Shown here: positions 20,249-64,000 of the stretch, one piece after another | Layout: the number at the start of each line of letters is the position of its first letter | How positions within the stretch are numbered: position 1 is the stretch's first letter | Assembly (NCBI GenBank): GCA_000402515.1 | Contig: AQRL01000036.1 | Span: 4,871 to 68,870, forward strand | DNA: 64,000 nt | Origin: Nanoarchaeota archaeon SCGC AAA011-G17 | Lineage (GTDB): Archaea; Nanobdellota; Nanobdellia; SCGC-AAA011-G17 | Direction of reading: 5' to 3' | Notes under the pieces: generated by a model | The model's input: the letters and a program-made list of their open reading frames with translations, nothing else | The model's database searches: none | Told to the model about the DNA's origin: nothing | Made by a program: the position numbers and the translations under genes

Positions 20249-20249
20249 C

Positions 20250-23654: not shown

Positions 23655-23662
23655 TTTTCCTC

Positions 23663-40544: not shown

Positions 40545-41027
40545 TTAATGGATGCTTGTGACTATCTTGCTGATATTTTTAAAAAATTTAAAAGCGTGCT
40601 CTATAGATTCCTTAGCTGGCTCCAGATTTGCCTGCGGAAGCTTTTGGTATGTAAATTTTCCTCTTTTCTGCTTTTCTGCCTTAAATAATTCAAGCAATTC
40701 ATCTGCCCTTATAATCATACTGTTATATATCTTTAATAATTCTACATCCAAAATTCCAGTATCAACAAAATGCTTTTTGAATTCATCTAAAGTTTTTTTA
40801 TGAACTTCTGGAAAATCAGTCTTGATATTTTTTATCAGTAATAATGCCTTTGCACAGTAGAATATACAATAATAAGAATGCGATATGACTGCACTATAGA
40901 AGGTTATTCCCTGAGTAAGGTCAAGAGTTAGCTTTAGATTATCATTCTGTGAAACATCAAGCAAGGCTTTTGCCAAATCCCTTTCATTTTCTGCCCTCTG
41001 TAAGTACAAATTAACCAGTGAATCCAT
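40545..41027 (-). CDS. HEPN-domain protein (partner of the upstream nucleotidyltransferase)
   Basis: HEPN-like N-terminal helices LQRAENERDLAKALL...YYCIFYCAKALLLIKNI; 17-nt overlap with MNT gene. Confidence 0.55.
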   Translation of the reverse strand: MDSLVNLYLQRAENERDLAKALLDVSQNDNLKLTLDLTQGITFYSAVISHSYYCIFYCAKALLLIKNIKTDFPEVHKKTLDEFKKHFVDTGILDVELLKIYNSMIIRADELLELFKAEKQKRGKFTYQKLPQANLEPAKESIEHAFKFFKNISKIVTSIH

Positions 41028-41640
41028 TTTCTCCAGCCTCCTTTATTAATTCATAATATGCGTTTCCCCCCCAGATAATAAGGTGCTTTCTGTATATTTC
41101 TTTTCCAAGATTTTCCTCTTCCCTTAACAACATTTCCTTGAATTCCTCTTTTTCTATAATATGGTAATCAACAGTGATTATTTCTTTTCTTGCAACCTTT
41201 TCAATATACGGCTTTATTTTTATATTCTCTTTGTCTATAATAACTGCTATGTCCAAATCAGAGCCTTTTTTTTGAGTATAATCTGCATGGCTGCCAAATA
41301 CCAACAGAATAAAAAAAGGGGTTATATTTGATATACTTCTCCTTATTTCATTTAAAAGTTCATAAATGTCTTTTGACCATTTTGTTGTGCTTATATCTCC
41401 AAAGTCCAAGGGATCAAAGAATTTTATTAATCCAACGTCATTTAGATTGGCTTTGTATAGATAGCTGTTGTTTACTTTAATTTTCTCTAAAAATTTTAGT
41501 TCCACAAACTTCTTTAAACTATTATACACCCAAGTTTTAGACTCTTTTTTAGCCAGTTCCATTATATCATTAAAGGTTAATGGCTTTAACAGATTCTTTC
41601 TAAAAACATCCAATAATTTTAGTTCCTGTATTGTTATCAT
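41011..41640 (-). CDS. Minimal nucleotidyltransferase (MNT) with N-terminal wHTH
   Basis: LLVFGSHADYTQKKGSDLDIAVII = GS...DxD motif. Confidence 0.7.
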   Translation of the reverse strand: MITIQELKLLDVFRKNLLKPLTFNDIMELAKKESKTWVYNSLKKFVELKFLEKIKVNNSYLYKANLNDVGLIKFFDPLDFGDISTTKWSKDIYELLNEIRRSISNITPFFILLVFGSHADYTQKKGSDLDIAVIIDKENIKIKPYIEKVARKEIITVDYHIIEKEEFKEMLLREEENLGKEIYRKHLIIWGGNAYYELIKEAGENGFTG

Positions 41641-49126: not shown

Positions 49127-49392
49127 AGGTATTGTTCAACCACATCATCTGGCCAGCCCTGTTTTTTCAATTCATGTTTTATCTGTTTTTTAGTCAAGCC
49201 CTGTTTCTTTGCCTTGTGAATATACATTACTACATTTGGGTGCTTGTGACTTTTGTTTCTTCTTGATTTTATTATCATTGATTTATGCCACATCCAGTAA
49301 AAGGCAATTATCAGACCAATAAAGAATAGTATTACCAAGATTAAAATAGTGATTTTCAGGGTAGTTTCATCCATATATATTATATAGTTCAA
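49123..49392 (-). CDS. Small membrane protein
   Basis: 89 aa, one TM (ILILVILFFIGLIIAFYWMW). Confidence 0.35.
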   Translation of the reverse strand: MNYIIYMDETTLKITILILVILFFIGLIIAFYWMWHKSMIIKSRRNKSHKHPNVVMYIHKAKKQGLTKKQIKHELKKQGWPDDVVEQYL

Positions 49393-49449
49393 ATTATATA
49401 TAAAGATTGCTATAGAAAAATTTAAAAGAATATAAAAGAGGAATATAGT

Positions 49450-49770
49450 ATGGGAATTGTAATCGGGCTTATAGAAAAGATAAAAATCAATGACAGGGAG
49501 ATAGAGGCAAAAATAGACACCGGGGCAAGCACAAGCTCAATAGACAGCACATTGGCAGAGGAATTAAAGCTAGGGCCCACAATAAAAACAAAGAATATTA
49601 AAAGTGTTCATGGAAATAGCATGAGGCCTGTAATAAAAACAAGGATTATTCTTCAGGGAAAGGCTTTAAATGCAAGGTTTAACCTGATTGACAGGAAAGA
49701 TATGAAATACAGGATTTTAATCGGGAAGAATATATTAAAGAGGGGGTTTATTATTGACCCTAAAAGATGA
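49450..49770 (+). CDS. Retropepsin-like aspartic peptidase (DUF785-type, RimK-associated)
   Basis: Active-site-like DTGAS; overlaps the RimK start. Confidence 0.55.
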   Translation: MGIVIGLIEKIKINDREIEAKIDTGASTSSIDSTLAEELKLGPTIKTKNIKSVHGNSMRPVIKTRIILQGKALNARFNLIDRKDMKYRILIGKNILKRGFIIDPKR

Positions 49771-50843
49771 AATTATGCGTCATAAGCCTGGGGGGTTATA
49801 GCAGCAGATTAATAGCCCAAGAGGCAAGAGAGCTATTCAGCAGTGTAGAAGAGGTTAAGATAAATGAGATTGAGGTAAGGGCAGGCAAGGATGGGTTTAA
49901 GGTTTTACATGATGGAACGGAACTGCCAAATTTTGACTGCGTTTATTTAAGGGGAAGCTACAAATATGCAATATTACAGAGAGCAATAACAGAGGCATTG
50001 CTGGGAAAATGCTATATGCCTTTCAAACCAGATTCTTTTTTTCTTGGGAGAGATAAATTACTTACAATATTAGAGCTGCAGAAATATAATATTAACATTC
50101 CAAAGACCTATCTTGCAAGCACAATCAAGGTTGCAAAAAAAATATTAGAGGAAGTAGAGTTCCCGATTATTATCAAAATACCAAGCGGAACACACGGCAA
50201 AGGGGTAATGAGCGCTGATTCTATTGAAAGTGCGAAAACAATACTGGACGTGCTGGAGGTCTTCAAACAGCCGTATATTATCCAGGAGTTTATTGACACT
50301 GGGGCTGAAGACATAAGAGTAATTGTTGCCGGTGACAGCATTGTCGGCTGTATGAAAAGAAAGGGGATGAAGGGAGATATAAGGGCAAATATCCATCAGG
50401 GCGGAACAGGCATGATTCATAATTTAAAGCCTGAAGAAAGGGAATTAGCAATAAGAACCGCAAGGGCTATCAAGGCTGAGATTGTCGGGATAGATATATT
50501 AGAGAGTTTCAGGGGCCCGATGGTTATCGAGGCTAATTTAAGCCCGGGGTTAAGAGGAATAATGGAAGTAACTAAAAAAAATATGGCAAGGGATATTGCA
50601 TCTTATTTATTTGAAAGGTCAAAGGAATTTAAAGAAACTAAGCTGGCTGATGGCGCAAAGAATGTTCTGAAGGATTTAACCAAAAAACATGAGAAGGGCA
50701 TTTTAATGAATTTAGATATAAGATTAGACACAATAAGAATCCCTCCTGAAATTACAAAGATTACCGGCTTTACAAAAGAAAGGGATGTTTTACTGACTGC
50801 TGATAAAGGCAAACTGACAATTAAGAATTCAGAAGATTTTTAA
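49767..50843 (+). CDS. rimK: RimK-family ATP-grasp alpha-L-glutamate ligase
   Basis: ATP-grasp pattern (FPIIIKIPSGTHGKGV...IIQEFI...GADIRVIV...IVGIDILE). Confidence 0.7.
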   Translation: MKLCVISLGGYSSRLIAQEARELFSSVEEVKINEIEVRAGKDGFKVLHDGTELPNFDCVYLRGSYKYAILQRAITEALLGKCYMPFKPDSFFLGRDKLLTILELQKYNINIPKTYLASTIKVAKKILEEVEFPIIIKIPSGTHGKGVMSADSIESAKTILDVLEVFKQPYIIQEFIDTGAEDIRVIVAGDSIVGCMKRKGMKGDIRANIHQGGTGMIHNLKPEERELAIRTARAIKAEIVGIDILESFRGPMVIEANLSPGLRGIMEVTKKNMARDIASYLFERSKEFKETKLADGAKNVLKDLTKKHEKGILMNLDIRLDTIRIPPEITKITGFTKERDVLLTADKGKLTIKNSEDF

Positions 50844-50865
50844 ACCTAAACCATAAGAAAAGATA

Positions 50866-53559
50866 ATGGAAGAAAATTCTGTTTTAGAAAAAAGAAAAGA
50901 GAAGATATTTTCTTACTTCAAAAAAAATACTAAATGGTACTGGATAGTTCTTATTATAATTGCATGGCTTGGCTATTTTATAAGAACAAGAAATCTTCCA
51001 TTATTGCATGATGTAACAACTGGAAGATATATTCCGGGACCAGAGGCTGACACTTATGTTTTTCTTAGATATGTTGAGTATATTGTCCAAAATGGCCACT
51101 TAATGGCTGCAGACTGCATGAGATATTTCCCGTGGTGCTATGGTGGTGCTTATGGTGGGAACATGAATGAGTATAGTTTCTTAAGTTATTTCATTGCTTA
51201 CCTGTATAAATTCTGGCATTTCTTCAATTCCTCAATAACTGTCCAGTATGCCCATGTTATGTATCCTGTTATTTCTTTTGTTATTGCATTAGTATTCTTC
51301 TTTTTGCTTGTAAAAAAATTATTTGATTATAAGATTGCATTATTAGCAAGCGCTTTTTTAACATTGGTTCCTGCTTATTTACACAGAACAATAGCCGGCT
51401 TCTCTGACAAGGAGAGCCTTGGATTTATATTTATGTTTGCTGCATTTTATTTCTTTGTCTGCGCGTGGCAGAATGAAAAAATAAAGAAGGCAATTATATT
51501 CGGTGCATTGTCTGGGCTGAGCAGCGGACTGATGGGATTAGTATGGGGCGGCTTTAGCTTTGTCATTACAACAATCGGCATTTTTGTTTTGCTTGAGGTT
51601 TTATTAAACAGGATAGATGAAAAAAATTCATATGCTTATATTTCATGGTTTTTGCTTCTAAGTTTTATATTAATTGCCTTTAGGGGCTGGACCTTGGGGA
51701 ACCTTATTGGAAGTATGTACACTGCTATTGATTGCATAGCATTTGTTATGATTATATTAAATTTAGCAATATTAAAAAAAGATTTATTAAAAATAAGGGA
51801 AAGAATAGACAAAAAAATTCCTGTCGGCATCCTGAATTTTCTAGTTACTTTGGTTATTGGTGTTTTAGCAATGATGATAGTGTTCCATCCAGATTTTATC
51901 ATAGACAGAATCAGGGATATTTATGTAACTTTAACAAATCCCTTTGGAACAGGGAGATGGGCTGTAACTGTTGCAGAGGCTCATCAGCCCTATTTAGTTG
52001 ATTGGGTTGGACAAATGTCCTGGACTTATTTCTGGCTGTTTATGGCTGGCTCTGTTCTGATATTTTATAATATTATCAAAATAGTTGAAAAAAATGCATG
52101 GAAACCAACATTAGTATATTTATTATTCCTTTTGGGATTTACATTCAGCAGATACTCTCCTAGTAGCACAGTTCTTAATGGTGAAACAAATACTGCCCGG
52201 TTTATTTACTTTGGCTCATTAATAATGCTTGGTGTGTTTATTATTGCATCCTACTTATACCTATTTTACAAAAATAAAGAGAAATTCAACAAAATAAAAG
52301 AAATAAATGATGTTGCTTTTTTTATTTTAGTCTGGTTTGTAATTATGATTGTCGGGGCAAGAAGCGCCTCAAGATTAATTCTTGTTTTTGTTCCTGTAAC
52401 AACTATACTTGCTGCTTATTTAGCTGTAAATGCAATTGAATATTCAATGAAACTGAAAAAAGATGCATACAAGATAATTGCTTACCTATTAATCTTCTTT
52501 ATTGTATTCTCTCCATTTGGCTCTGCTGTAAGCGCGATTCCCTTGGTTAATAAACTTCCAATAATAAACAAAGATGGAATGCTGGTTGAATTTGGAAGAC
52601 AAACCTATTTGCAGGCAAAATACGTAGGTCCTGGATATAATCAGCAATGGCAATATGCTGGAAAATGGATAAGAGAAAATACTCCAAAGGATGCTGTTTT
52701 TGCCCACTGGTGGGATTATGGATATCTAGTTCAGTACGGAGGGGAGAGGGCAACTATGACAGATGGCGGTAATGCTATGGGCAGCTTAAATTATTTTATG
52801 GGAAGGACAGTTTTAACAGGGCAGAATGAAACTGAGGCATTAGAATTTTTGAAAGCGCATAATGCCACTAATTTGTTAATGATTTCAGATGAGATTGGAA
52901 AGTATCCTGCATTTTCATCAATTGGCTCAGATGTTAACTGGGACAGATATTCATGGCTGCAGGTCTTCCAGATTGATAAAAATAATATTCAGGAAACAAG
53001 AGACGAGACAATTTATTTATACAGAGGAGGGGCTCCATTAGACGAGGATTTCACATATAAAGGACAGCTATATCCAAGGGGAAGTTCTGGCATTGTAGGA
53101 ATATTCCTGCCAGTAAAACAGGATGGAAATGATTCACAGATAGGACAACCAACAGCTGTTCTTGTTTATAATGGTCAGCAGATCAGGATTCCATTAGAGT
53201 GCGTATTTATTAATGGCAGAGAGATAACCTTCCCCGAGAAAGGAATAGTAGGATGCTTAAGAATTATTCCTGTTATACAAGATAATAAAGTTAATCCGGT
53301 TGATGCTGGGATATATATCTCACCAAAGGTTAAGAGAACATTATTTACCAAGTTATACTTATTCGGACAGGATGGAAAATATTTTAAAACTGTTTATAAT
53401 GATGAGCAAAATATGCCATTATCACTCTATAATGGAAGGATTATCGGACCTTTAAAAATCTGGGATATTAGCTATCCAAAAGACCTTGTAATTCCTGATA
53501 TGTATTATGTTGATAAACTTCCAGACCCAAGAGTTGAAAGCCTTGAAGGAAGATTCTAA
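50866..53559 (+). CDS. aglB: Oligosaccharyltransferase AglB (STT3 family)
   Basis: 13 TM N-terminal domain and WWDYGY motif (AHWWDYGYLVQYGGERATMTDGGN). Confidence 0.85.
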   Translation: MEENSVLEKRKEKIFSYFKKNTKWYWIVLIIIAWLGYFIRTRNLPLLHDVTTGRYIPGPEADTYVFLRYVEYIVQNGHLMAADCMRYFPWCYGGAYGGNMNEYSFLSYFIAYLYKFWHFFNSSITVQYAHVMYPVISFVIALVFFFLLVKKLFDYKIALLASAFLTLVPAYLHRTIAGFSDKESLGFIFMFAAFYFFVCAWQNEKIKKAIIFGALSGLSSGLMGLVWGGFSFVITTIGIFVLLEVLLNRIDEKNSYAYISWFLLLSFILIAFRGWTLGNLIGSMYTAIDCIAFVMIILNLAILKKDLLKIRERIDKKIPVGILNFLVTLVIGVLAMMIVFHPDFIIDRIRDIYVTLTNPFGTGRWAVTVAEAHQPYLVDWVGQMSWTYFWLFMAGSVLIFYNIIKIVEKNAWKPTLVYLLFLLGFTFSRYSPSSTVLNGETNTARFIYFGSLIMLGVFIIASYLYLFYKNKEKFNKIKEINDVAFFILVWFVIMIVGARSASRLILVFVPVTTILAAYLAVNAIEYSMKLKKDAYKIIAYLLIFFIVFSPFGSAVSAIPLVNKLPIINKDGMLVEFGRQTYLQAKYVGPGYNQQWQYAGKWIRENTPKDAVFAHWWDYGYLVQYGGERATMTDGGNAMGSLNYFMGRTVLTGQNETEALEFLKAHNATNLLMISDEIGKYPAFSSIGSDVNWDRYSWLQVFQIDKNNIQETRDETIYLYRGGAPLDEDFTYKGQLYPRGSSGIVGIFLPVKQDGNDSQIGQPTAVLVYNGQQIRIPLECVFINGREITFPEKGIVGCLRIIPVIQDNKVNPVDAGIYISPKVKRTLFTKLYLFGQDGKYFKTVYNDEQNMPLSLYNGRIIGPLKIWDISYPKDLVIPDMYYVDKLPDPRVESLEGRF

Positions 53560-53566
53560 TAAAAAA

Positions 53567-54205
53567 ATGGCTTATGAAAAAGATTATCATGAATTTGTAC
53601 ATAAAAATCTATTAAACAATAATAGATATTATTTATTTAGAGCAAAATATGCTGAAAAAACTTATCTAAAACATTTTAATAAAACAGATAAAATATTAGA
53701 ATTTGGGTGTGGTGTTGGACAGAATATCTTTTTAAGAAAAGAAAATAGCATAGGAATTGATATAAGTGATTTCTGTATTGAAGAGTGCAAAAAAAGAGGA
53801 ATAAAGACCAACAAAAAGATAGAAAGTATAAAGGGTTCAAGTATTGATGGAGTTATTAGTATCCACTGCCTAGAACATGTTGAAAACCCAGATTATTATA
53901 TTAAAGAGTTTTGTAGAATATTAAAAAAAGATGGAAAATTAATAGTTGTTTTACCGAATATTCCAAGAAACAGACCTGAAAAGATATTTATTCCAAATGT
54001 CGCCCAGCATTTTTTCAGCTGGAGATTCCACGAATTCAATGAATTGCTAACCCATAATCATTTTAATATCAAATTGAACAAATTTAATTATGCCTATGGT
54101 TTCTCTTTATTTTATAGATTATCTTTCAAATTGTCTCTCTTTTTGATTAAATTACTTGGATATTTAAAAAACAGAAAGGAGATGATTATTGTTGCTCAAA
54201 AATAA
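53567..54205 (+). CDS. Class I SAM-dependent methyltransferase
   Basis: Start moved to MAYEKDY; ILEFGCGVGQN motif I. Confidence 0.55.
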   Translation: MAYEKDYHEFVHKNLLNNNRYYLFRAKYAEKTYLKHFNKTDKILEFGCGVGQNIFLRKENSIGIDISDFCIEECKKRGIKTNKKIESIKGSSIDGVISIHCLEHVENPDYYIKEFCRILKKDGKLIVVLPNIPRNRPEKIFIPNVAQHFFSWRFHEFNELLTHNHFNIKLNKFNYAYGFSLFYRLSFKLSLFLIKLLGYLKNRKEMIIVAQK

Positions 54206-55685
54206 GATTCCGGATAAATGGCTCTATTTTGCAATAATTGTTCTAGTTATATATTTAGTAATAAGAACTGTCAATTTGTATGGAATAGTAGAAGAATTTC
54301 CATTAGATTTTTCTAATGACCATAGTGCACATATGTCTGATTTATATTTCTTAGAAAAATATGGCTATGGTGAAAATATCCTTAACTGGTATACTTTTGT
54401 TGGCGGATATCCTTTGTTAAAATTCTATCACCCTGCAAGAACATTTTATGGTCTGTTCTTTTATTATTTATTAGGGAGTGTAGAGGCAGCTACATATTTT
54501 GCTATGGTTTCTATTGTAATTCTTGGTTTCATTGCAATATATTTTTTCGGAAAGTATCATGGATTATCCCCAATAAAAAGAACTGCTATGTTTGCCTTAT
54601 TCTTTGCTAACCCAATCCTTATTGGGTATTATAGAATAGGTAGGCATTCCGAAATTTTCGGATTTTTATGGATGATACTATTTATTTTCATTGTTCTTTG
54701 GTATAAAGACAAAAAGTTAGACTGGAAATTCCTGTGGTTTATACCTGTCTATTCCTTGTTATTATTAAGCCATATATCTATATTTTTGATATCATCTATG
54801 CTTATCTTAAGTTTATTATTGGTAAAAAAGAACAGAGAAAGGATTGTAATATTATTAAGCTGTTTTGTAACCTTTTTGTTAACTGCATTTTGGACAATTC
54901 CTTTTGTTAGAGATTCAAGTGAGACATTTGTCGGTGGTTTTTATGGATTACAGAGAACATTATTATTATTTACCCAAGAGACATTGATAGATAGAGTTTC
55001 TTCTTATGTCACTCCATTAATTTTCTTTTTTGTATTTTATTTATATTATAAAACAAGTAAAAACAAAAGGGAGCTTATTTTTTATTCTATTCCACTAGTA
55101 ATTGGAGCACTATTTTTTACCAGAATTCTTGCGTTTGTTCCTATCTTAAACAGACCTGTGCCAGATACCTATAATATGTTCTTCTTATTTTTATCAATAT
55201 ATTTATTTTTAAATTTAAGATTTGATAAATTATTATCTTATGAAAAAAATATTATTAAATACGGATTAATTATTGTTCCAATAGCTGCTATTTTGTTATC
55301 CCTAAATTTCACTTCATTTTATCATGGGCATGACCAGGAGAATAAGGATATTATTTCATTATTTCCTTATGTTGATGACCAATTATTAATCATAGGTATT
55401 AACGGTTATCCAAGACCATATTATTCATATGGTGCAATTTATTATAATATTTACACTCCGTCTGGCTGGGGTTCCCAAAGCGTTAGTAGAGAAGCCAGGG
55501 AAAAATCAGGTTTACCAGATAAATATTTGATTGATAGGGATTGTAACTTATTCTTAAAAAGCATGAAAGATATCGGAGGAAAAGAGATTATTACAAGAGA
55601 TGATAACTGTAATTTTTTAATTAAATGTGGAATGAATCCAACCAGATATTCTAATAGTATTTGTTTATTAAAAATTAAAGAATAG
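54189..55685 (+). CDS. Polytopic membrane protein (GT-C-like putative glycosyltransferase)
   Basis: ~12 predicted TM helices, aromatic-rich loops. Confidence 0.4.
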   Translation: MLLKNKIPDKWLYFAIIVLVIYLVIRTVNLYGIVEEFPLDFSNDHSAHMSDLYFLEKYGYGENILNWYTFVGGYPLLKFYHPARTFYGLFFYYLLGSVEAATYFAMVSIVILGFIAIYFFGKYHGLSPIKRTAMFALFFANPILIGYYRIGRHSEIFGFLWMILFIFIVLWYKDKKLDWKFLWFIPVYSLLLLSHISIFLISSMLILSLLLVKKNRERIVILLSCFVTFLLTAFWTIPFVRDSSETFVGGFYGLQRTLLLFTQETLIDRVSSYVTPLIFFFVFYLYYKTSKNKRELIFYSIPLVIGALFFTRILAFVPILNRPVPDTYNMFFLFLSIYLFLNLRFDKLLSYEKNIIKYGLIIVPIAAILLSLNFTSFYHGHDQENKDIISLFPYVDDQLLIIGINGYPRPYYSYGAIYYNIYTPSGWGSQSVSREAREKSGLPDKYLIDRDCNLFLKSMKDIGGKEIITRDDNCNFLIKCGMNPTRYSNSICLLKIKE

Positions 55686-55706
55686 GTTTAAAAGATTTAT
55701 TAAAAT

Positions 55707-56588
55707 ATGATTTATATGGTTTTGTGTAATATTTGTAGTGGAGACACGTATACAGTCATTTATGAAGGGAAAGATGGTAAAAATTATCAGTATTATTCCA
55801 GCGGAAATTATGGAAAGATAATTAGATGTAATAATTGCGGTCTTATTTATGTTAATCCTTTAGGTAAAGATATAGAAAAGAATTATGAAACTATTGAGGA
55901 CAAGGATTATCTAAAATCAAAAGAGGCTAGGATAGAAACGTCCAAGAGAGATTTAAAAGAAATTGAAAAATATAAGAAAGAGGGTAAAATATTGGATATT
56001 GGTTGTGGTCCAGGTTTTTTTCTTAAAGTTGCTAAAGATAATAAATGGGATGAATACGGAGTTGAATTATCCAAATGGGCTTGTGATTATGGAAAAAATA
56101 CTGGTGTTAATATTATAAACAAAAGATTAGAAAGGGCTAAATTCAATGATAAATTTTTTGATGTTATTACCTTATGGGATGTTATAGAACATGTTGAGTA
56201 TCCATCTAGTTTACTTTTAGAGATAAACCGTATCTTAAAGAATGATGGAATTATTGTATTAAACACCCCAAATATCGGAAGTATCTTTGCAAAAATTATG
56301 GGAAAAAGGTGGTGGAATCTTATTGGCATGCATATTTATTATTTTGATAAAAAAACGATTAGAAAAATATTAGAAAAAAATGGATTTAAGATTATTAAAA
56401 TAAAATCATATTCGAGGATTATAACCCCAAGGTATGCAGTTGAATGGTTAAAAAATTATAAAATGATTTATGGTATTTTAAAATTTATTTTTGATAAAAC
56501 TTTTTTAGGAAATGTTAGACCAAGAGTAAACTTTTTTGATAATATAGTTGTTTATGCCAAGAAGTCAGGACCATCTAATAAAGAATAA
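55707..56588 (+). CDS. Methyltransferase with N-terminal Zn-ribbon
   Basis: CNICSG...CNNCG ribbon; ILDIGCGPGFF motif I. Confidence 0.6.
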   Translation: MIYMVLCNICSGDTYTVIYEGKDGKNYQYYSSGNYGKIIRCNNCGLIYVNPLGKDIEKNYETIEDKDYLKSKEARIETSKRDLKEIEKYKKEGKILDIGCGPGFFLKVAKDNKWDEYGVELSKWACDYGKNTGVNIINKRLERAKFNDKFFDVITLWDVIEHVEYPSSLLLEINRILKNDGIIVLNTPNIGSIFAKIMGKRWWNLIGMHIYYFDKKTIRKILEKNGFKIIKIKSYSRIITPRYAVEWLKNYKMIYGILKFIFDKTFLGNVRPRVNFFDNIVVYAKKSGPSNKE

Positions 56589-57263
56589 TTTTATCATCAC
56601 AGGAATATATTTTGGCATAGCCTTTATAAAATTAAATTTTGATGAACCTATTGATCTGTTAGTAAGCACAAGAGGAATTTCTGATATTTTAGCCTTATTC
56701 TTGGTCATCTTAACGGATATTTCCAACTGAATTGAAAAATCATTTTGAGAAAGGTCTAATTTCTTTACAAAAGAAGATTTATACGCTCTATATCCGCTTG
56801 TTAAATCTGTAATCTTTGTGAAGTATATGATTGAAAAGGCCTTATTTGCTAATTTACTCAATAATACTCTCCATAGGGGTACATTTTTCATCCCGCCGCC
56901 CCTAATATAACGAGAAGCTATACAAATATCATTTCCTTCATCAATTTTATTTACCATTTGTGCAACGTGGTCTATTGGCTGAGTCATATCTGCATCTAAT
57001 TCAATTATTATTCTTCCATTGGCTTCTTTTATCCCTGTTTTTATTGCTCCACCCAATCCTTTATTTTTTTCATGACTAATATATCTTAGATTCTTGTATT
57101 TTTTTGTTAATTTTTTTATAATTTCCTCTGTTCTATCAGTTGAGCCATCATTTATAACGAGAATTTCATAATCTTCTTTAAGTTTTAATGCACTAAAAAT
57201 TTTATCTATTGATTTTTCAATAACTTCCTCTTCATTATACGCTGGTAAAAGTATTGTTATCAT
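56565..57263 (-). CDS. GT2 glycosyltransferase (dolichyl-phosphate sugar synthase-like)
   Basis: ITILLPAYNEE...VINDGSTD...ELDADMT DXD-type motifs. Confidence 0.75.
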   Translation of the reverse strand: MITILLPAYNEEEVIEKSIDKIFSALKLKEDYEILVINDGSTDRTEEIIKKLTKKYKNLRYISHEKNKGLGGAIKTGIKEANGRIIIELDADMTQPIDHVAQMVNKIDEGNDICIASRYIRGGGMKNVPLWRVLLSKLANKAFSIIYFTKITDLTSGYRAYKSSFVKKLDLSQNDFSIQLEISVKMTKNKAKISEIPLVLTNRSIGSSKFNFIKAMPKYIPVMIKLFFIRWS

Positions 57264-57264
57264 T

Positions 57265-58713
57265 TTAGTTTATCTTATTTTTTAATAAAAAAGATTCTGG
57301 CATAAAATTATAAAAATTGTGTCTTATTCTAAATCTTGCTATAGGTTTATAAATTTTTGCAGCGGTTTTATAAATAAATGATTCTGACTGAGATTCTATC
57401 TTATCATCAATACATATAGATGTAATCATAATCCTTTTGAATAATTTTAACATTTCTTTGGTTTGATTAAACTCTGATATTTTTGTCCAATCAAAATTTG
57501 CCCACTCTTCTAATTTTTGTGGTTCTTTAAATCCTTGTGAAATTGCAACATTATAAAGAGGTGTTGCTGGGTAAGGCTTATAAATATAAACTGGGCCAGC
57601 CATCGCATGTTTATTATCTTTTAAAAGTTTATATATCAGGCTAGTTGTTTCAAATAAATCTTCTTTATTTTCTGTTGGAAAACCACAAATGAAATTATAC
57701 AACACTAAAAAGCTATAATTTGAAAGTTTTTTATTTACCCTTATTGTTTGTTCCCTAGTTATTAGTTTATTAATTAATTTTAACATTCTATCTGAACCAG
57801 ATTCAACACCTATTTGTAAAAATTTACATCCTGCCTTTTCTAATAAGGATAAATCTTCTGGGATCATTCTATCCAAAGTATCTATTCTTGCTCCCTGACA
57901 GCCAAAAGTTATGTTTAGATTTTCTTTGATAATTAAACTCATAATTTTATTTACTCTATCTTGATCAACAAAAAAATTATCGTCTATAAAATAAAATGAT
58001 TTAATATTATACTCTTTTATGAGTTTCTTTATATTTTTTACTACATTCTCAGGTTTCATTGACCTCCAATATGATTTATTATAGATTGAGTTATAGCAAA
58101 ATCCACATGCGTAGGGGCATCCTCTTGATGTTTCAATGTCTATTACCTCTTTTTGCTTAAAAGATTTATGAGTATATTTTTTTATATCGATAAGATTATA
58201 CGGAAGTTCTGGAAAATTATTGAGATCTGTAAATTCTCTTTCTGGTGTAATAATTACTTTATTTTGTTTTTTATATGCTATTCCTTTAATTTTTTCTATT
58301 GTCTTTTTATTTTGTAATGCTTTTATTAATTTTAAAAATGTATTTTCTCCTTCTTTTATAACAACAAAATCTATATATTTATTTTCTAATGTTTGTTTTG
58401 GAAATAAAGAAGCATGAACACCCCCCCAAATCACATAAGCAGAAGAATTTTCTTTTACTATTTTTGATGCTTCAAGTGCAAATTTTATTTGAGAGCCAGT
58501 CATAGAAGTTATACCTACACAAAGTGGCTCTTTTTTTATAAAATCTTTTAATTCTTTTTCCCAGTCTTTATCTGTCCTTTGATCTATTATCTTTACATTA
58601 TATCCTTCCTTAACTAGCGGTGCTGCTACTGAAAGAACTGCTAATGGAAGTGTTGGCGGCATTACATCATTATAAACCCCATCAAAAGGATGTATCAAAA
58701 GGATAGTGTTCAT
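57265..58713 (-). CDS. B12-binding domain radical SAM protein (class B)
   Basis: Cobalamin-binding N-terminal (CVGITSMTGSQ) and SRGCPYACGFCYNS CxxxCxxC cluster. Confidence 0.75.
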   Translation of the reverse strand: MNTILLIHPFDGVYNDVMPPTLPLAVLSVAAPLVKEGYNVKIIDQRTDKDWEKELKDFIKKEPLCVGITSMTGSQIKFALEASKIVKENSSAYVIWGGVHASLFPKQTLENKYIDFVVIKEGENTFLKLIKALQNKKTIEKIKGIAYKKQNKVIITPEREFTDLNNFPELPYNLIDIKKYTHKSFKQKEVIDIETSRGCPYACGFCYNSIYNKSYWRSMKPENVVKNIKKLIKEYNIKSFYFIDDNFFVDQDRVNKIMSLIIKENLNITFGCQGARIDTLDRMIPEDLSLLEKAGCKFLQIGVESGSDRMLKLINKLITREQTIRVNKKLSNYSFLVLYNFICGFPTENKEDLFETTSLIYKLLKDNKHAMAGPVYIYKPYPATPLYNVAISQGFKEPQKLEEWANFDWTKISEFNQTKEMLKLFKRIMITSICIDDKIESQSESFIYKTAAKIYKPIARFRIRHNFYNFMPESFLLKNKIN

Positions 58714-58766
58714 TTTTATTTTTCCATACAGAGAGATTTATAAAATTATGTATATTAAAAAATAGA

Positions 58767-59786
58767 ATGTCAATTGTTGCCAATAAAGATGTTGGAGAAA
58801 CAAAGGAATCTTTTTTTAAAGCGGTCTCTGATGTTATGGAATTAGCAGAATGGAAGAAATATATTGGAAATAGTGTTTTTTTAAAGTTAAATTGTGTATC
58901 TGACAGGGTCATACCTGGACAATGCACATCTCCATGGGTATTTGAAGCTGTTGTTAAAAAATTAAGAAGTAAAAAAGGCATTAAGATTTATGCTGGTGAT
59001 TCCTACACTGTAACAAACAAACAAATTGAGAGATGTTTTGAGGCATGGGGGTATAATAAAATTGCCAAAGAGTATGGTGTTGAATTAGTAAACCTATCAA
59101 AACAACCAATGATAAGAAAGAATATTGGAGGAGAAATATTCAAGGAGCTTGATATACCCAAAATATTATTAGATGTAGATTCTATTGTCACATTACCTGT
59201 TTTAAAAACCCATTATATAACAAAAATGACTTTCTCTTTAAAGAATCAGTGGGGATGCATAACCACTGTAAGACAAAAATACCATACTGTTGCCAGTCAA
59301 TGTATTGCAGAATTAAATAAATTTCTTAAGGTTAGTTTTGCTGTTGGTGATGCAAGTGTATGCTCAGAGGGGCACGGACCAAGAGTTGGAAAGCCAAAGA
59401 TTATGAATTGTGTTCTTGCATCAAATGATCTTGTTGCACTTGATTCTGTTGGTGCAAAAATGATAGGCATGGATAGTGTAGAACAGATAGAATATGCACA
59501 CAAATTAGGTATTGGAAGCAAAGAGTATAATTTGAAAGGAGATAAAATAAAAATCAGCAAGTTCGAGCCTGCAATCTTGAAAACCCACATAATCTCTCTT
59601 ATAGAAATGAACTTAAGAAAAATTCCTTTATTAAACAAAATTATTTTTGACACTCCCTTATTTAAAATTCCTGCTTATCTAACTGCGCGTATGAATGATT
59701 TGTGGTATTACAAAAAAGGAAGATTTTTACCAGGACCAGTTTTAAAGAATAATATGTACAGAGAAGAGTTTGAAGATTTAGTCTGA
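58767..59786 (+). CDS. DUF362 domain protein
   Basis: DUF362-like pattern (VFLKLNCVSDRVIPGQCTSPWVFEAVV...TLPVLKTH). Confidence 0.5.
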   Translation: MSIVANKDVGETKESFFKAVSDVMELAEWKKYIGNSVFLKLNCVSDRVIPGQCTSPWVFEAVVKKLRSKKGIKIYAGDSYTVTNKQIERCFEAWGYNKIAKEYGVELVNLSKQPMIRKNIGGEIFKELDIPKILLDVDSIVTLPVLKTHYITKMTFSLKNQWGCITTVRQKYHTVASQCIAELNKFLKVSFAVGDASVCSEGHGPRVGKPKIMNCVLASNDLVALDSVGAKMIGMDSVEQIEYAHKLGIGSKEYNLKGDKIKISKFEPAILKTHIISLIEMNLRKIPLLNKIIFDTPLFKIPAYLTARMNDLWYYKKGRFLPGPVLKNNMYREEFEDLV

Positions 59787-61361
59787 TTTAATGTAAATTT
59801 CTGTATACTTATTATTTTTCTCAAATCTTTTTTCCAATGTTAAATTAAATTTATTAATAATTTCTTTTTTTCTTTCTTCTCCAATAAATCCATTATAATA
59901 AAAAATATCAAACTTATTGTCATCTTTTATACTATCAATATCCACATTTCTTATTGATTTTTTTGTATAGCCTGAATAAGGTGATGATAACCCTTGTTTT
60001 GAAAAGAAACCAGATGTTAAAACAACGGAATTTGGATAATTCTCTTCTATGTATCCTATTGCCTGAGATTCAACAGTAACCTCGTCTGCATATTCCATAT
60101 TTGATGACAAATCACCATGATACGGAAGATTCAAATTCCATACAGAAATAAAAAGTACTGCTATAATTAATGCAACCAAATATTTCTTATTCCCAAATAT
60201 CTTTGTTATTGATTTAGAGGCAATTATAACTAACAGTGGGAATATTGGAACAAAATACCTAGCAAGGTTTGTTCTAAACATAGAATGATAAACTACATAA
60301 ATTAGTATTATTGATGAAAAAAGAATTATCTCTTTTTTATTCCATTCTTCAAAAAATAACTTATTTGTTGTTAAAAAGATAAAGAATATTACTGCAATCA
60401 AAAACCTAAAATTATAAACTTCTTGGATATGGTTATTTAAGGTAGGAAAATTTGCTGATTCTATCTGTAATGAAGGAATAAAATAGATTATAACAAGAAG
60501 AAATATACTCAGAATTAAGTAAAATAATGTGGATTTATATTTAAATCTTTTAAAAAATGATTTTATGGTTAATGGCGCCAGAATAATTAATATTGTTAAT
60601 ATCCATCTAAACTCATCAAAAAATATTTTTTTTAATACTCCGAGGAAGATTAATATTATAGGTGAGATACTTGTTAACCTAAATCTTTTCAATTCCGGAT
60701 GAAAAAACCAACCATTTATTATCTTATTTAAAAATAACCAAAAAACAACAAGGAGCAACGGCGAACCATAAATTAACAATTCTCTAAGAAGTACTTTTTT
60801 ATCTTTTTTATAGTCTTTTATTAAAATATACAATAAAACTCCTGGAATAATAAGCATTGAAGATTCATATATTAAAATTGACAATGACATCATCAAAATA
60901 TACAATTTTTTATTTTCTTTTATAACAAAATATATTGCTGCAATATTCAGTGCTGTGCTTGGTATTGCAGTGGAAAAAATTCCAGAGAGTGCAGAATAAG
61001 AGGGGATTGAAAATAATAGAATTACAGAGATTATTGCCGTATCTTTATCAAATATTTTCTCTGCTATCAAGTATGTGAATAATAAAGCAAGAGATGAGAA
61101 TAAAATGATTATTACATAAGCCATTATCGGACTTGTAGTGAAAAAAAAGATTATTGCTAAAACCATAAATAACAAAGGGGTATGCCCAAAAGAAAGACCA
61201 TTAACAAAAGGATTAATTCCATTTTTTACCATATGCTCTGCAGAGGGTACAAGATATGTAAGCGCATCTTCATTAAATGGAAGATTCAATATTGTTATTT
61301 TAGATAAAAACATTACCAAAAAAAATATCAAAAACAATATTATTTTTTTCATTTTTTCCAT
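59778..61361 (-). CDS. Polytopic membrane protein with C-terminal soluble domain (GT-C/PMT-ArnT-like candidate)
   Basis: ~12 TMs followed by a ~150-aa hydrophilic tail. Confidence 0.4.
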   Translation of the reverse strand: MEKMKKIILFLIFFLVMFLSKITILNLPFNEDALTYLVPSAEHMVKNGINPFVNGLSFGHTPLLFMVLAIIFFFTTSPIMAYVIIILFSSLALLFTYLIAEKIFDKDTAIISVILLFSIPSYSALSGIFSTAIPSTALNIAAIYFVIKENKKLYILMMSLSILIYESSMLIIPGVLLYILIKDYKKDKKVLLRELLIYGSPLLLVVFWLFLNKIINGWFFHPELKRFRLTSISPIILIFLGVLKKIFFDEFRWILTILIILAPLTIKSFFKRFKYKSTLFYLILSIFLLVIIYFIPSLQIESANFPTLNNHIQEVYNFRFLIAVIFFIFLTTNKLFFEEWNKKEIILFSSIILIYVVYHSMFRTNLARYFVPIFPLLVIIASKSITKIFGNKKYLVALIIAVLFISVWNLNLPYHGDLSSNMEYADEVTVESQAIGYIEENYPNSVVLTSGFFSKQGLSSPYSGYTKKSIRNVDIDSIKDDNKFDIFYYNGFIGEERKKEIINKFNLTLEKRFEKNNKYTEIYIKSD

Positions 61362-62725
61362 ATAAAATAAATTATTAATAAAATTATAACAAAGGATATT
61401 AAAGTTATTATGGTTGTAATTTGCCAGTCCATATTGTTTATTTTTGTAGATATTAATGTTAGTGTATAACTAGTTAATCCTCTTTCTTTTATAGAATTAA
61501 AATAATAACTTAAATCTTCAAGAGTACACCCAAAATCATACATAACTCCAACAAAATTTATTAGTATTGAAATAGAAGATAAAAAAATTACTATTTTGAG
61601 TGAAATCTTTTCAAAAGTAAATGATAATGGAATTATGATAAATGGTATTATTGGAAGTAGGTATCTTAATCCAAATGTGCATGGACTTCTCCCAGAAAAA
61701 GATGAATAAAAAATAAGTTGTAATAAAAATATAAGAAGAAATAATATACTTTCATTTCTAAACTCTTTTTTTCTGAACCCAAGATAAACACCATAAAATG
61801 ATAAAAACAATATAGGCATATATACAAAAAGACCATATTTCAAAGAAAAGAGATACATAAATATTGTTTCAAATTTAGGAATACCATATGTTATTCCATT
61901 GGGGTTTGTACTATATGATGGGGTTATTTCATGTACTCTGTATTGATAACTTGATGGAATGATACTATCATAGACTGTAATGTTGTATAACATTAAAAAA
62001 GACAAGGGGATCATAATACCTACTATAAAAAGGATTATTTTTCTATCCCTTTTTAATGTTAATAAATAAAGAAATAATAAGAATAAGCTAATAATTTGTG
62101 GGAAATCTATCGTCACTGCATATCCCCCAAATAGCCCCGAGATAAATAGTAACACGTTTCTATTATCTTTCTTATATTGGTATAACAAAAAGAAGGAACA
62201 AAATAAAAAAAATGCGGATAATATTCTTGGATAAAAACCTACCGAGTAAGTAAAAAAAAGTGTTCCAAATGCAAAAGTAAACACAATTAATAGTCTCTTC
62301 TTACTGCTTTTTATTATATCCTCCAAAAAATTATAAATTAAAACAGAGATAAGGACTGATAAAATAGAAAATAGGAAAACAATTGATATTATTGAGATAA
62401 TAACTGTATTAAGTTGTGCTTGTGGTATATTTAACAAATTTGGAATAAAATTAAATATTGGTTTGAAGATTATATAAAATGGAACTATCAAAAAAGTTGT
62501 TCCAGGAGCAAATCCTGAATAGAAGTTTCCATTATAATAAGAATAATCACAACCAGTCTGTTTACATCCCTCTTTCATGTAATCATTCACAACAAAAGTT
62601 CTTTTGTCAACAATAGCCATTGATTCATGAATTATAGATTCCGCTAGATAAGAACCACCATATGTTGAAATAAAAAAAAGATAAACAATCCAGATACTAA
62701 AAAATATTTTATAGCTGATATTCAT
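61349..62725 (-). CDS. Polytopic membrane protein (GT-C-like candidate)
   Basis: ~12 TMs; 13-nt overlap with downstream gene. Confidence 0.4.
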   Translation of the reverse strand: MNISYKIFFSIWIVYLFFISTYGGSYLAESIIHESMAIVDKRTFVVNDYMKEGCKQTGCDYSYYNGNFYSGFAPGTTFLIVPFYIIFKPIFNFIPNLLNIPQAQLNTVIISIISIVFLFSILSVLISVLIYNFLEDIIKSSKKRLLIVFTFAFGTLFFTYSVGFYPRILSAFFLFCSFFLLYQYKKDNRNVLLFISGLFGGYAVTIDFPQIISLFLLFLYLLTLKRDRKIILFIVGIMIPLSFLMLYNITVYDSIIPSSYQYRVHEITPSYSTNPNGITYGIPKFETIFMYLFSLKYGLFVYMPILFLSFYGVYLGFRKKEFRNESILFLLIFLLQLIFYSSFSGRSPCTFGLRYLLPIIPFIIIPLSFTFEKISLKIVIFLSSISILINFVGVMYDFGCTLEDLSYYFNSIKERGLTSYTLTLISTKINNMDWQITTIITLISFVIILLIIYFIWKK

Positions 62726-62726
62726 T

Positions 62727-63959
62727 TTAATTTGCCAGTCTTCTTTTCATATAGCTTAAGAACCATTTTGGTCTGAAATAATATGAAACAAATGCTTTTT
62801 CTTTTAACCTTTCAATTTGTTCTGGTGTTAGATTTTTATGTCTAAAAACAAGTGTATAATTATCAAATTTTTCATAATCATTTGTAAGAAATCTATCTTT
62901 CATATTTTCATAGAACCCCGTTCCAGGTATTGGAGTGTTTATTGCAAATTGTGCTATATGTGTATTAAGTTTTTTTGCATAATTTATTGTGTCTAAAATG
63001 CTCTTTTCTGTATCATCCTCTAATCCAAGAATATAAAAAGCAGAAACTTTTATTCCTATCTTATCACAATAATCTATTATTTTTTCTTGGTGTGTTTTAT
63101 TTATTGATTTTCTCTTTGATTTCTTAAGAATTTCTTCATTTTCTGACTCTATGCCTACATTTATTGCTCTTAATCCTGATTTGTAAAATGTGTCAAGCAA
63201 ATTTTCATCAAGTAAATCAAGTCTTGTTTCACATGCCCATTCTATATCCAAATTATTTTCAATTATCTTTTCTGCTATCTCTTTTGCTCTTTCTTTATCT
63301 AATGAGAATACAGGATCACGGAATAAGAACCCTTTTATCTTAAATTTTCTTTTTAGATATTTCAACTCTTCAATAATTTTATCTGGGTCTCTTGCTCTCC
63401 ATACTGTCCCTTGTGTTGCTGTATATGGACAATAAAAGCTACATGAATATGTACATCCTCTACTCGATTGCATTACCAGAAAGGGTTTTTTATTAATCAC
63501 AGGAGAATAAGAATATTTTTCATAAGGAAATATATCCCATAATGGGAATGGAAGTGAGTCTAAATTTTTTATTGGTTCACTGATAATTTTTCCTTTTGGT
63601 ATTGTTTCTTTTAAATTAATAAGTGCTGCTTCTGGTTCACCACAAATTACAAAATCACAATATGGTAAAAATAAATCTGATTTCACCGATGAAAAAGGAC
63701 CCATAAACCCAACTTTCGAATTTGTTGTTTTTTTTATTTTTTTGGCTATTTCTATTTCATGTTTATAATCAATCATAGAAGAATGAATAATAATAAGATC
63801 AGAGTCTTTTGATATCTTATCTTGTAAAAAAGAAACATCATGACCATTTTTTGATAATATGGCTGCTGCATAAGCTAGAGAAAGAATTGGTAAATTTACA
63901 CCCCTTTTCTTTGACAGTTCAATAAGTTTTGCAGGAATAGATTTCCCTATTCTTGTCAC
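62727..63959 (-). CDS. B12-binding domain radical SAM protein (second copy)
   Basis: N-terminal B12-binding-like domain, SSRGCTYSCSFYCPY Cys cluster. Confidence 0.6.
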   Translation of the reverse strand: MTRIGKSIPAKLIELSKKRGVNLPILSLAYAAAILSKNGHDVSFLQDKISKDSDLIIIHSSMIDYKHEIEIAKKIKKTTNSKVGFMGPFSSVKSDLFLPYCDFVICGEPEAALINLKETIPKGKIISEPIKNLDSLPFPLWDIFPYEKYSYSPVINKKPFLVMQSSRGCTYSCSFYCPYTATQGTVWRARDPDKIIEELKYLKRKFKIKGFLFRDPVFSLDKERAKEIAEKIIENNLDIEWACETRLDLLDENLLDTFYKSGLRAINVGIESENEEILKKSKRKSINKTHQEKIIDYCDKIGIKVSAFYILGLEDDTEKSILDTINYAKKLNTHIAQFAINTPIPGTGFYENMKDRFLTNDYEKFDNYTLVFRHKNLTPEQIERLKEKAFVSYYFRPKWFLSYMKRRLAN

Positions 63960-64000
63960 AGTTCCAAAGTTTCCACTAACGTCCTTATTTGCACACTGTT

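Follow-up and report, generated by a model that had tools for sequence, protein, structure and literature searches.

Radical SAM enzymes encoded with dolichyl-phosphate-sugar synthase-like and GT-C-like glycosyltransferases at the AglB locus of a nanoarchaeon

Three-component glycosylation systems, whether AglD/AglR/AglS, GtrB/GtrA/GtrV, CsbB/GtcA/YfhO or ArnC/ArnD/ArnEF/ArnT, share a division of labour in which a sugar is first attached to polyprenyl or dolichyl phosphate by a family 2 glycosyltransferase (GT2) and then transferred, at the outer face of the membrane, by a polytopic enzyme of the GT-C fold. AglD, AglR and AglS of Haloferax volcanii are the archaeal precedent for this scheme, with Agl genes located beside that of the oligosaccharyltransferase AglB (PMC3871713); bacterial three-component systems with auxiliary modifying enzymes have also been described, and in the mycobacterial decaprenylphosphoryl ribose (DPR) to arabinose (DPA) pathway (DprE1/E2, followed by Emb/Aft) and the Citrobacter GT136 systems, a cytoplasmic lipid-linked single-sugar donor is diversified by epimerases before GT-C enzymes decorate the glycan after its assembly (PMC11127046). 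A radical S-adenosylmethionine (rSAM) enzyme, HpnJ, acts on a lipid-linked sugar in another setting, its substrate being hopanoid-linked glucosamine (PMC13459092). We describe here a locus of Nanoarchaeota archaeon SCGC AAA011-G17 in which three rSAM enzymes are encoded with GT2 and GT-C-like proteins beside AglB; most of it lies within the stretch of DNA that was analysed at its full length of 64,000 nucleotides (contig AQRL01000036.1, positions 4,871 to 68,870, hereafter the window). The best explanation, which we hold with slightly better than even confidence, is that the rSAM enzymes edit sugars on dolichyl phosphate and that GT-C proteins transfer the products outside, at the AglB locus, in two GT2-rSAM modules.

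The ten open reading frames (ORFs) named in a preliminary description of this DNA are all present, and their Pfam and NCBIfam domains agree with its account of the gene content (AglB, GT2, methyltransferases, rSAMs, a DUF362 protein and three polytopic GT-C-like proteins). The last of them, rSAM2, is truncated by the end of the window, where its ORF spans 62727-63959 from a GTG start. NCBI contig AQYW01000079.1 (assembly GCA_000380905.1; L001 below), identified through an exact match of rSAM1, is 100% identical to window 64000-47265 over its positions 4714-21449, holds the complete rSAM2 gene at 4677-5987, and shows that the cluster runs on past the window through rSAM3, GT2b, a Glycos_transf_4 gene, a Polysacc_synt flippase and a further GT2. 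The genes are as follows (aa, amino acids; nt, nucleotides).

50866..53559, + strand: AglB oligosaccharyltransferase, 897 aa, with STT3 domain and STT3/PglB/AglB core domain.
53507..54205, + strand: class I SAM-dependent methyltransferase, 232 aa (Methyltransf_23/11/31/25), with a 53-nt overlap with the end of aglB.
54189..55685, + strand: MP498, polytopic, probable GT-C-like transferase, 498 aa, with weak PTPS_related (E 1e-4) and EpsG matches.
55707..56588, + strand: class I SAM-dependent methyltransferase, 293 aa (Methyltransf_23, 92.3 bits).
56565..57263, - strand: GT2a, probable dolichyl-phosphate-sugar synthase, 232 aa, soluble (Glycos_transf_2, 129 bits).
57265..58713, - strand: rSAM1, B12-binding-domain radical SAM protein, 482 aa (B12-binding 57.5 bits, Radical_SAM 93.9 bits).
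58767..59786, + strand: DUF362 protein with LarA-like fold, 339 aa (PF04015, 155.9 bits), divergent from rSAM1.
59778..61361, - strand: GTC527, PMT_2-type GT-C glycosyltransferase, 527 aa (PMT_2 29.3 bits, cutoff 26.1).
61349..62725, - strand: GTC458, GT-C-like membrane protein, 458 aa (PMT_2 22.7 bits, slightly under cutoff; LA_3751/LA_3752 putative glycosyltransferase family, 64 bits).
62727..64000, - strand, first 37 nt outside the window: rSAM2, AprD4/HpnJ-like radical SAM protein, 436 aa for the full gene (Radical_SAM 66 bits).
On L001, beyond the window, same operon upstream of rSAM2: rSAM3, 460 aa (B12-binding 78.3 bits, CX3CX2C).
On L001, beyond the window, same operon upstream of rSAM2 and rSAM3: GT2b, a GT2 of 238 aa.
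On L001, beyond GT2b: Glycos_transf_4 enzyme, GT4-family, AglH/MraY-like.
On L001, two genes from the GT2b-rSAM3-rSAM2 end of the operon: Polysacc_synt flippase.

In total, the locus thus encodes three rSAMs, two DPM1-like GT2s and three polytopic GT-C-like proteins, together with an initiating enzyme, a flippase and an oligosaccharyltransferase. It is the N-glycosylation locus of a DPANN archaeon of the Nanoarchaeota/Woesearchaeota type, built around AglB, the AglH-like enzyme and the flippase, and the closest relatives of the cluster are from Woesearchaeota or Nanoarchaeota. A prolyl-tRNA synthetase that clusters at 90% identity with that of the window is likewise annotated from a Nanoarchaeota metagenome-assembled genome. 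The 897-aa protein belongs to the AglB/STT3 family by its STT3 domain (74.5 bits, cutoff 24.5), its STT3-PglB_core domain (34.8 bits) and a WWDYG motif at residues 615-619, and has 12 crude transmembrane (TM) segments; it scores 96 bits, below the 450 cutoff, against the archaeosortase-A-linked subfamily TIGR04154. AglB heads a closely packed run on the + strand that continues with methyltransferase, MP498 and methyltransferase; the 232-aa methyltransferase has no NCBIfam equivalog, and homologues of the 293-aa enzyme occupy the same position in two related contigs (L007, L090). Genes for a RimB-like aspartic protease and a RimK-type ATP-grasp ligase stand directly upstream of aglB (49450-50843), as they do in L090. 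On the - strand, the operon reads GT2b-rSAM3-rSAM2-GTC458-GTC527, with GTC527 last; a 1-nt gap separates GT2b from rSAM3, rSAM3 overlaps rSAM2 by 4 nt and GTC458 overlaps GTC527 by 13 nt, while rSAM1 and GT2a are also 1 nt apart.

The strongest evidence that these rSAM enzymes work with glycosyltransferases comes from the neighbours of rSAM3, whose family members share 55-64% identity between Patescibacteria, Endomicrobiales and DPANN. A scan with the family alignment, at one genome per species, found 215 relatives; 80 loci were retained, and the ORFs in these were searched with the cluster proteins. Of these loci, 43 (phmmer score at least 520) are taken as the closest relatives. The gene at position -1 is a GT2 in 35 of 42 loci, and 31 of these GT2s are orthologues of GT2b, against a background of about 5% GT2 at least four genes away. 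The gene at +1 is polytopic in 21 of 43 and the gene at +2 in 12 of 37, where the same kind of background is about 11%. When 60 polytopic proteins were compared with Pfam (56 neighbours from the 80 rSAM3 loci, the neighbour in the Endomicrobiales locus L009 and the three from the window), PMT_2 was found in 42 and PMT in 16. Carriers of the cassette among the closest relatives are bacteria of the candidate phyla radiation (CPR), Elusimicrobia and DPANN, while more distant relatives (score <520; Planctomycetota and others) keep the arrangement less often. Three loci illustrate its range.

L007, archaeon: methyltransferase-rSAM3-GT2-rSAM2-polytopic-GT2, followed by methyltransferase-MP498-like-AglB.
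L008, Portnoybacteria: GT2-rSAM3-GT2-PMT_2-PMT_2 within a large glycan cluster.
L009, Endomicrobiales, 7579-11068: isolated GT2-rSAM3-PMT_2 operon between thrS and infC.

The same arrangement is found in the related DPANN contigs L007, L090, L172 and L173. As the arrangement recurs in DPANN contigs and the GT2-rSAM-GT-C order is kept across phyla, the linkage between rSAM enzymes and glycosylation goes beyond chance. In the explanation that we favour, GT2-rSAM3-GT-C would be a mobile cassette common to CPR bacteria, Elusimicrobia and others. The preliminary description had tied the rSAMs to glycosylation, and this association, with GT2s resembling polyprenyl-phosphate-sugar synthases and with PMT_2-type GT-C proteins, is indeed retained in many unrelated genomes. 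Its coupling of the rSAMs to AglB holds among the DPANN relatives only; the core cassette is found in bacteria as well, in one instance as a stand-alone operon amid housekeeping genes, so that the acceptor need not be an N-glycan. That the genes are co-located without functional meaning, or that the rSAMs mature a peptide or protein (by protein methylation or in the manner of ribosomally synthesised and post-translationally modified peptides), we consider barely credible: it could draw on sub-threshold matches to ApyD and rSAM_ocin_1 and on the varied contexts of rSAM1 relatives at about 40% identity, but the frequencies of GT2s at -1 and of PMT_2 proteins at +1/+2 are far above the local background across phyla, successive genes of the operon overlap or abut at their start and stop codons, and no precursor-peptide-like partner was seen among the called genes beside the rSAMs examined, ORFs of <90 aa not having been searched.

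Comparison with the DPANN contig L090 shows how the locus may have been put together. L090 is 72.6% identical at the nucleotide level over window 49374-62711 and has the same gene order (ProRS, RimK, AglB, methyltransferase, MP498, methyltransferase, GT2a, rSAM1, DUF362, two GT-C genes and the GT4-family gene), but precisely the GT2b-rSAM3-rSAM2 block, some 3.4 kb in length, is missing from it (L001 2580-5987 as against L090 645-1661). The absence of this block implies that the locus combines two modules, which can be read as one logic used twice: module A, GT2b-rSAM3-rSAM2-GTC458-GTC527, and module B, rSAM1-GT2a. Because the block is missing from L090 and rSAM3 is 55-64% identical to proteins of CPR bacteria, the sequences suggest that the GT2b-rSAM3-rSAM2 module was transferred between domains.

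The partners of the rSAMs resemble enzymes that make and use polyprenyl-linked sugars. The top NCBIfam matches of GT2a and GT2b are AglJ, PgfS, PpgS, ArnC and Dol-P-hexose transferase, all under the equivalog cutoffs, and the best relatives of GT2b in the Protein Data Bank (PDB) are the dolichyl-phosphate-mannose synthase (DPMS) of Pyrococcus furiosus (5mlz; E 6e-21, the alignment spanning the complete catalytic domain), GtrB and ArnC, all of them polyprenyl-phosphate glycosyltransferases. GT2a and GT2b are therefore probable polyprenyl- or dolichyl-phosphate-sugar synthases. Among the membrane proteins, GTC527 has the features of a GT-C glycosyltransferase, with 13 crude TM segments, an ED pair after TM1 and a PMT_2 match above cutoff, and had no match in a sequence search of the PDB. 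GTC458 has 11 crude TM segments, and hhalign pairs its family with the PMT_2 proteins encoded beside rSAM3 in CPR bacteria at a probability of 91.8%. The MP498 family aligns in turn with the GTC458 family (94.8%, E 5e-8, 298 columns), whereas its direct match to the CPR PMT_2 neighbours is weak (18.9%); the GT-C status of MP498 thus rests on the link through GTC458. Acidic residues follow the first TM segment in MP498, GTC458 and GTC527 and are invariant within the MP498 and GTC458 families, GTC527 having been inspected as a single sequence; in MP498, residues D40, N43, D44 and H48 after TM1 are invariant, and the gene is kept beside AglB in L007 and L090.

The three rSAMs share 30-34% pairwise identity and were placed by NCBIfam model scores and PDB sequence matches, used as a proxy for a reference-based phylogeny. 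rSAM1 scores best with BchE (181 bits against a cutoff of 481), then with ApyD, MJ_1487 and PhpK (about 137-140), carries a CX3CX2C cluster motif at residues 199-206 (CPYACGFC), and finds OxsB, AprD4 and QCMT as its best PDB matches. The structure of QCMT, 9CCB, is named in PMC12931638. rSAM3, the most conserved of the three and located just beyond the window, has the same type of motif (CPGRCTFC) and is nearest not to a methylase but to HpnJ (286 bits against 577.6), with 132.5 bits against 500 for the AprD4 family (NF033070); its best PDB matches are AprD4 (E 3e-32) and QCMT. Both enzymes fit the definition of class B rSAMs, with a B12-binding domain (PF02310) above threshold and CX3CX2C, and are predicted to bind cobalamin. 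In rSAM2, B12-binding reaches 17.8-18.2 bits, under the 32.1 cutoff, and precomputed Pfam annotation gives Radical_SAM alone; its scores are 183 bits for HpnJ and 133 bits for the AprD4 family (cutoffs 577.6 and 500), and its best PDB match is AprD4 (6fd2, E 9e-31). Of the two class B enzymes that the preliminary description had recognised in the window, rSAM1 thus keeps its assignment and rSAM2 loses it.

Class B enzymes include the sugar C-methyltransferases GenK, GenD1 and MoeK5 and other methylases such as TokK, QCMT and Fom3, with which rSAM1 and rSAM3 have the B12-binding domain and CX3CX2C in common; their PDB matches to QCMT and TokK have E values of 1e-7 to 1e-23. They differ from these enzymes in falling under all methylase family cutoffs, while HpnJ, BchE and OxsB score equally or higher. 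These last three are class B enzymes that do not methylate. C-methylation by rSAM1 and rSAM3 remains our leading guess from sequence. An HpnJ-style formation of a carbocycle appears unlikely, as a GT-C enzyme needs an activated anomeric phosphate on its donor, and C-methylation, epimerisation or deoxygenation would fit better.

The score of HpnJ also prompts a reading in which the locus remodels glycolipid head groups, in the manner of HpnI/HpnK/HpnJ or of calditol synthase, with the GT2 adding a sugar to a membrane lipid, rSAM3 (and rSAM2) turning it into a cyclitol or other stable head group and the GT-C proteins serving some other step. HpnJ is the top curated match of both rSAM3 and rSAM2, in the hopanoid pathway it too follows a GT2, HpnI, and takes a lipid-linked sugar as its substrate (PMC13459092), and a PIG-L deacetylase and glycosyltransferase pair lies 15 kb away at 35383-37139. 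Nevertheless, rSAM3 reaches only about half of the HpnJ cutoff, as do eight relatives tested (seven lower-scoring ones and the cassette member of L009, with a range of 242-278 bits); lower-scoring relatives from Planctomycetota, Desulfobacterota and others were accordingly rejected as true HpnJ. No hopanoid or calditol-related genes occur in the Pfam-annotated neighbourhoods examined, GT2b resembles polyprenyl-phosphate-sugar synthases and not HpnI, and the conserved third gene encodes a GT-C protein, a user of polyprenyl-phosphate sugar donors. We regard head-group remodelling as improbable.

A related proposal has the lipid carrier or the membrane lipids as substrates of the rSAMs, their isoprenoid chains being methylated, cross-linked or cyclised, for example, in the way known from Tes, GrsA, Gmm or HpnP/R, and leaves the rSAMs with only a loose link to glycosylation. 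It would agree with the many class B rSAMs that act on isoprenoid lipids (PMC13459092) and with the moderate matches of all three enzymes to HpnR and to TIGR04072, a "lipid biosynthesis B12-binding/radical SAM" model also labelled ladderane. These scores are, however, far under the cutoffs: 112-141 bits against 360 for TIGR04072, 52-85 against 500 for TIGR04190 (Ta0216), and HpnR far under 650. The cassette also stands beside GT2 and GT-C genes, not lipid-synthesis genes, in CPR bacteria, Elusimicrobia and DPANN, and in rSAM2 both the motif and the type of partner are those of a sugar dehydratase, so that modification of lipids seems very improbable. The comparison with lipid-type enzymes covers the TIGR04072, HpnR, HpnJ and TIGR04190 models, the Tes and Grs clades not being directly compared; as far as NCBIfam scores tell, the rSAMs do not group with known non-glycan families such as the glycerol dialkyl glycerol tetraether (GDGT) ring synthases, the grouping that would have undone the proposed link to glycosylation.

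The resemblance of rSAM2 to AprD4 points in a different chemical direction. AprD4, a diol dehydratase of the radical SAM type that works without cobalamin, acts on paromamine and is paired with the NADPH-dependent reductase AprD3 (PMC5461906, PMC12931638), its N-terminal domain being a degenerate Rossmann-like fold (PMC12931638). A residue-level alignment of rSAM2 with AprD4 (6fd2) reveals a common motif, GCxxxCxFYCPY, that is CX3CX3C, which is kept in eight of nine rSAM2 homologues from related loci. In L019, L032, L033, L035, L037, L064 and L082, the rSAM2 homologue adjoins a gene for an NAD-dependent epimerase/dehydratase of about 275 aa, an extended short-chain dehydrogenase/reductase (SDR); in L020 (1872-3914), it is apparently fused to the C-terminal ~220 residues of the same SDR, the fused part lacking the first ~53 residues, including the nucleotide-binding motif, and the apparent fusion may have arisen in assembly or through decay of the gene. 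The pairing mirrors AprD4/AprD3 and points to deoxygenation. As in the C3'-deoxygenation of apramycin, the rSAM enzyme has CX3CX3C, an N-terminal domain of degenerate Rossmann-like type with no significant B12 signature and, in homologues, a reductase-type NAD(P)-dependent SDR as partner; it differs in scoring under the family cutoff, in its surface-glycan and not aminoglycoside context, in having no SDR partner here and in a motif that varies among close relatives. CX3CX3C was rejected as a marker of the clade and is treated as a resemblance only. The lack of a B12 domain, the AprD4-type motif and the sugar-type SDR partner in other genomes together overturn, for rSAM2, the preliminary argument that class B membership implies C-methylation.

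The mechanism that we favour builds on gene content, domain identities and conserved gene order, from which substrates, step order and chemistry are inferred. Much of the decoration of the glycan would take place at the outer face of the membrane, by GT-C-type transferases using single sugars on dolichyl phosphate. In each module, a small soluble GT2 of the DPM1/AglJ type would load a sugar onto dolichyl phosphate, and one or two rSAMs would then edit this sugar, most plausibly while it is lipid-linked at the cytoplasmic face; after flipping, the polytopic GT-C proteins would add the edited sugar to the N-glycan or to a different acceptor at the surface. rSAM2 could perform an AprD4-like radical dehydration of a 1,2-diol as the first step of a deoxygenation, and rSAM3 and rSAM1 a cobalamin-assisted functionalisation of a C-H bond that leaves the anomeric phosphate intact, C-methylation being the first guess and epimerisation or rearrangement the alternatives. 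A broader proposal, which we put forward tentatively and with distinctly less than even confidence, is that GT2-rSAM-GT-C constitutes a widespread and undescribed class of three-component glycosylation in which a cobalamin-domain rSAM edits the lipid-linked sugar before flipping, by C-methylation, deoxygenation or a rearrangement sparing the anomeric phosphate, for instance, and that three such editors feed the AglB-linked N-glycan here. The cassette probably makes unusual surface sugars in ultra-small bacteria and archaea.

Editing could alternatively take place earlier, with the rSAMs tailoring soluble nucleotide sugars, or a cytoplasmic glycan intermediate, and the dedicated GT2 then loading the modified sugar for the GT-C protein. 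The GT2-rSAM-GT-C order fits this possibility equally well; a dedicated GT2 orthologue accompanying rSAM3 (31 of 42 loci) is expected if an unusual donor must be recognised, neither the rSAMs nor the GT2s have membrane segments, and the SDR partners of rSAM2 homologues belong to a family that normally acts on nucleoside diphosphate (NDP)-sugars. On the other hand, the nearest characterised relatives, HpnJ (PMC13459092) and AprD4 (PMC5461906), act on sugars already attached to an aglycone, and the minimal cassettes are free of nucleotidyltransferase and other NDP-sugar genes; editing at the nucleotide stage is in our view unlikely, but it is the main alternative.

Several observations weigh against editing on the lipid carrier followed by GT-C transfer. 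Synteny is silent on the substrate of the rSAMs, which could be a lipid-linked sugar, a nucleotide sugar before loading, or a lipid. Each rSAM scores under every curated NCBIfam family cutoff, and the chemistry is for this reason a guess; a contraction of the HpnJ type would moreover destroy the donor bond needed by a GT-C enzyme, so that the nearest named relative opposes a simple transfer of function. CX3CX3C occurs in just 20 of the 50 nearest 50%-cluster representatives of rSAM2, and tblastn found no SDR partner for rSAM2 in the window or in L001. GTC458 and MP498 are putative GT-C proteins, assigned through sub-threshold Pfam and profile-profile matches. GT2a and GT2b have no membrane segments, minimal cassettes such as that of L009 lack a flippase, and relatives of rSAM1 at about 40% identity are also found in non-glycan contexts, among HMGL-like and PALP neighbours and in L003.

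The relatives of rSAM1 otherwise divide by distance. The rSAM1-GT2a pair is kept in L090 and L092, and close relatives (46-75% identity; L090, L092, L002, L091 and L126) are all in glycan clusters; at 37-46% identity, a GT2 or polytopic neighbour lies within two genes in 13 of 27 loci. The idea that the rSAM1 family is uniformly linked to glycans was rejected, about half of the relatives at ~40% identity being elsewhere. Two metagenome loci with relatives at 50-53% identity, L002 and L091, contain four to six tandem genes for B12-domain rSAMs and three to four for SPASM rSAMs; these are polysaccharide-type clusters (Wzy_C, with Wzz in L091, GT1, GT2 and PMT), and such a load of radical enzymes is unusually heavy for a glycan cluster.

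The DUF362 protein, which the preliminary description had counted among the linked components, does not follow the rSAMs outside close relatives. None of the 80 rSAM3 loci has it, and of the rSAM1 metagenome loci only that of the close relative L090 does, so that a constant partnership with the rSAMs was rejected. The gene goes instead with the AglB clusters of DPANN, its homologues being mostly from DPANN and adjoining AglB. Its AlphaFold2 model has a mean predicted local distance difference test (pLDDT) score of 93.3, and the top 19 Foldseek matches of this model in the PDB are all LarA or malate racemase, weak ones with TM-scores of 0.32-0.46, in agreement with the Pfam clan relationship noted in PMC11770544. 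K147, H149, K159 and H173 are invariant in the family. Beside AglB in DPANN, DUF362 is often accompanied by a second DUF362, an Amino_oxidase-type flavoprotein, a UbiA-family prenyltransferase and a GT2 with DUF2304. Two contigs carry such pairs of copies.

L172, 8001-9029 and 11150-12214: DUF362 copies beside AglB.
L173, 8001-9068 and 11402-12484: DUF362 copies beside AglB.

By analogy, and speculatively, the DUF362/flavoprotein/UbiA set resembles the pathways that edit polyprenyl-phosphoribose on the lipid with DprE-type enzymes, and the LarA-like DUF362 protein may be a further on-lipid editor working by hydride transfer.

Elsewhere in the window, large probable surface proteins with TSP_3, Big_7, MopE-like, dockerin-like and PKD domains (21721-25678, 30765-32075, 37827-40502) are candidate substrates of the glycosylation machinery. 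The overlapping genes at 35383-37139 encode a PIG-L-family de-N-acetylase and a Glyco_trans_1_3 (MurG-like) glycosyltransferase in a stretch of low GC content, and possibly belong to a glucosamine-lipid or glycan pathway separate from the AglB cluster. GC content falls to 24-29% at 32-38 kb. Genes of mobile or defence type lie at 32904-33680, 34422-35264 and 40545-41640 (an AbiEii toxin, a LAGLIDADG endonuclease-like ORF and a pair of HEPN and nucleotidyltransferase genes). Two copies of tRNA-Arg(CCT), at 18766-18842 and 20708-20783, flank an AAA_14/DUF4143 ATPase ORF (18986-20248), and a second AAA_14/DUF4143 gene is found at 26426-27601; the arrangement may reflect a duplication or an insertion at a tRNA gene.

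To our knowledge, antibiotic pathways and lipid head groups are the settings in which rSAM chemistry on sugars has been described, and surface-glycan assembly with an rSAM as a fixed component is not among them; within an incomplete coverage of the literature, no description was found linking rSAM enzymes to GT-C proteins, AglB or three-component glycosylation. If the proposed mechanism is true, editing on the lipid carrier, or just before it, would be a new way to diversify surface sugars, the surfaces of CPR bacteria, Elusimicrobia and DPANN would carry sugars beyond the reach of ordinary nucleotide-sugar pathways, and a large uncharacterised clade of B12-domain rSAMs would receive a role. 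In host-dependent organisms with tiny genomes, surface glycans and a possible need for scavenged cobalamin would bear on attachment to the host and its recognition. With only three genes, the minimal operon lends itself to direct study in a heterologous host.

Set against the known systems, the cassette shares with HpnI/HpnK/HpnJ and with the calditol synthase Cds a GT2 that attaches a sugar to a lipid and an rSAM that rearranges the lipid-linked sugar; it differs in that no hopanoid or GDGT genes were seen in the annotated neighbourhoods, in its DPM1-type GT2 and in the GT-C protein encoded by its third conserved gene. The pentofuranose systems of mycobacteria and Citrobacter follow the same logic of donor, editing and GT-C transfer, but with a UbiA-type phosphoribosyltransferase as the synthase and flavin or SDR oxidoreductases as editors, where GT2s and rSAMs are found here. 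With the three-component systems, the points in common are GT2s that resemble DPMS, GtrB and ArnC, PMT_2-type GT-C proteins as their partners and, for the archaeal copy, a position beside AglB. Within this group, ArnD sets a precedent for modifying a sugar while it is lipid-linked. By comparison with GtrB and ArnC, which have C-terminal membrane helices, the GT2s described here have none; the minimal cassettes contain no GtrA-type flippase, and the middle component, a flippase or hydrolase in the known systems, is here an rSAM with a B12-binding domain.

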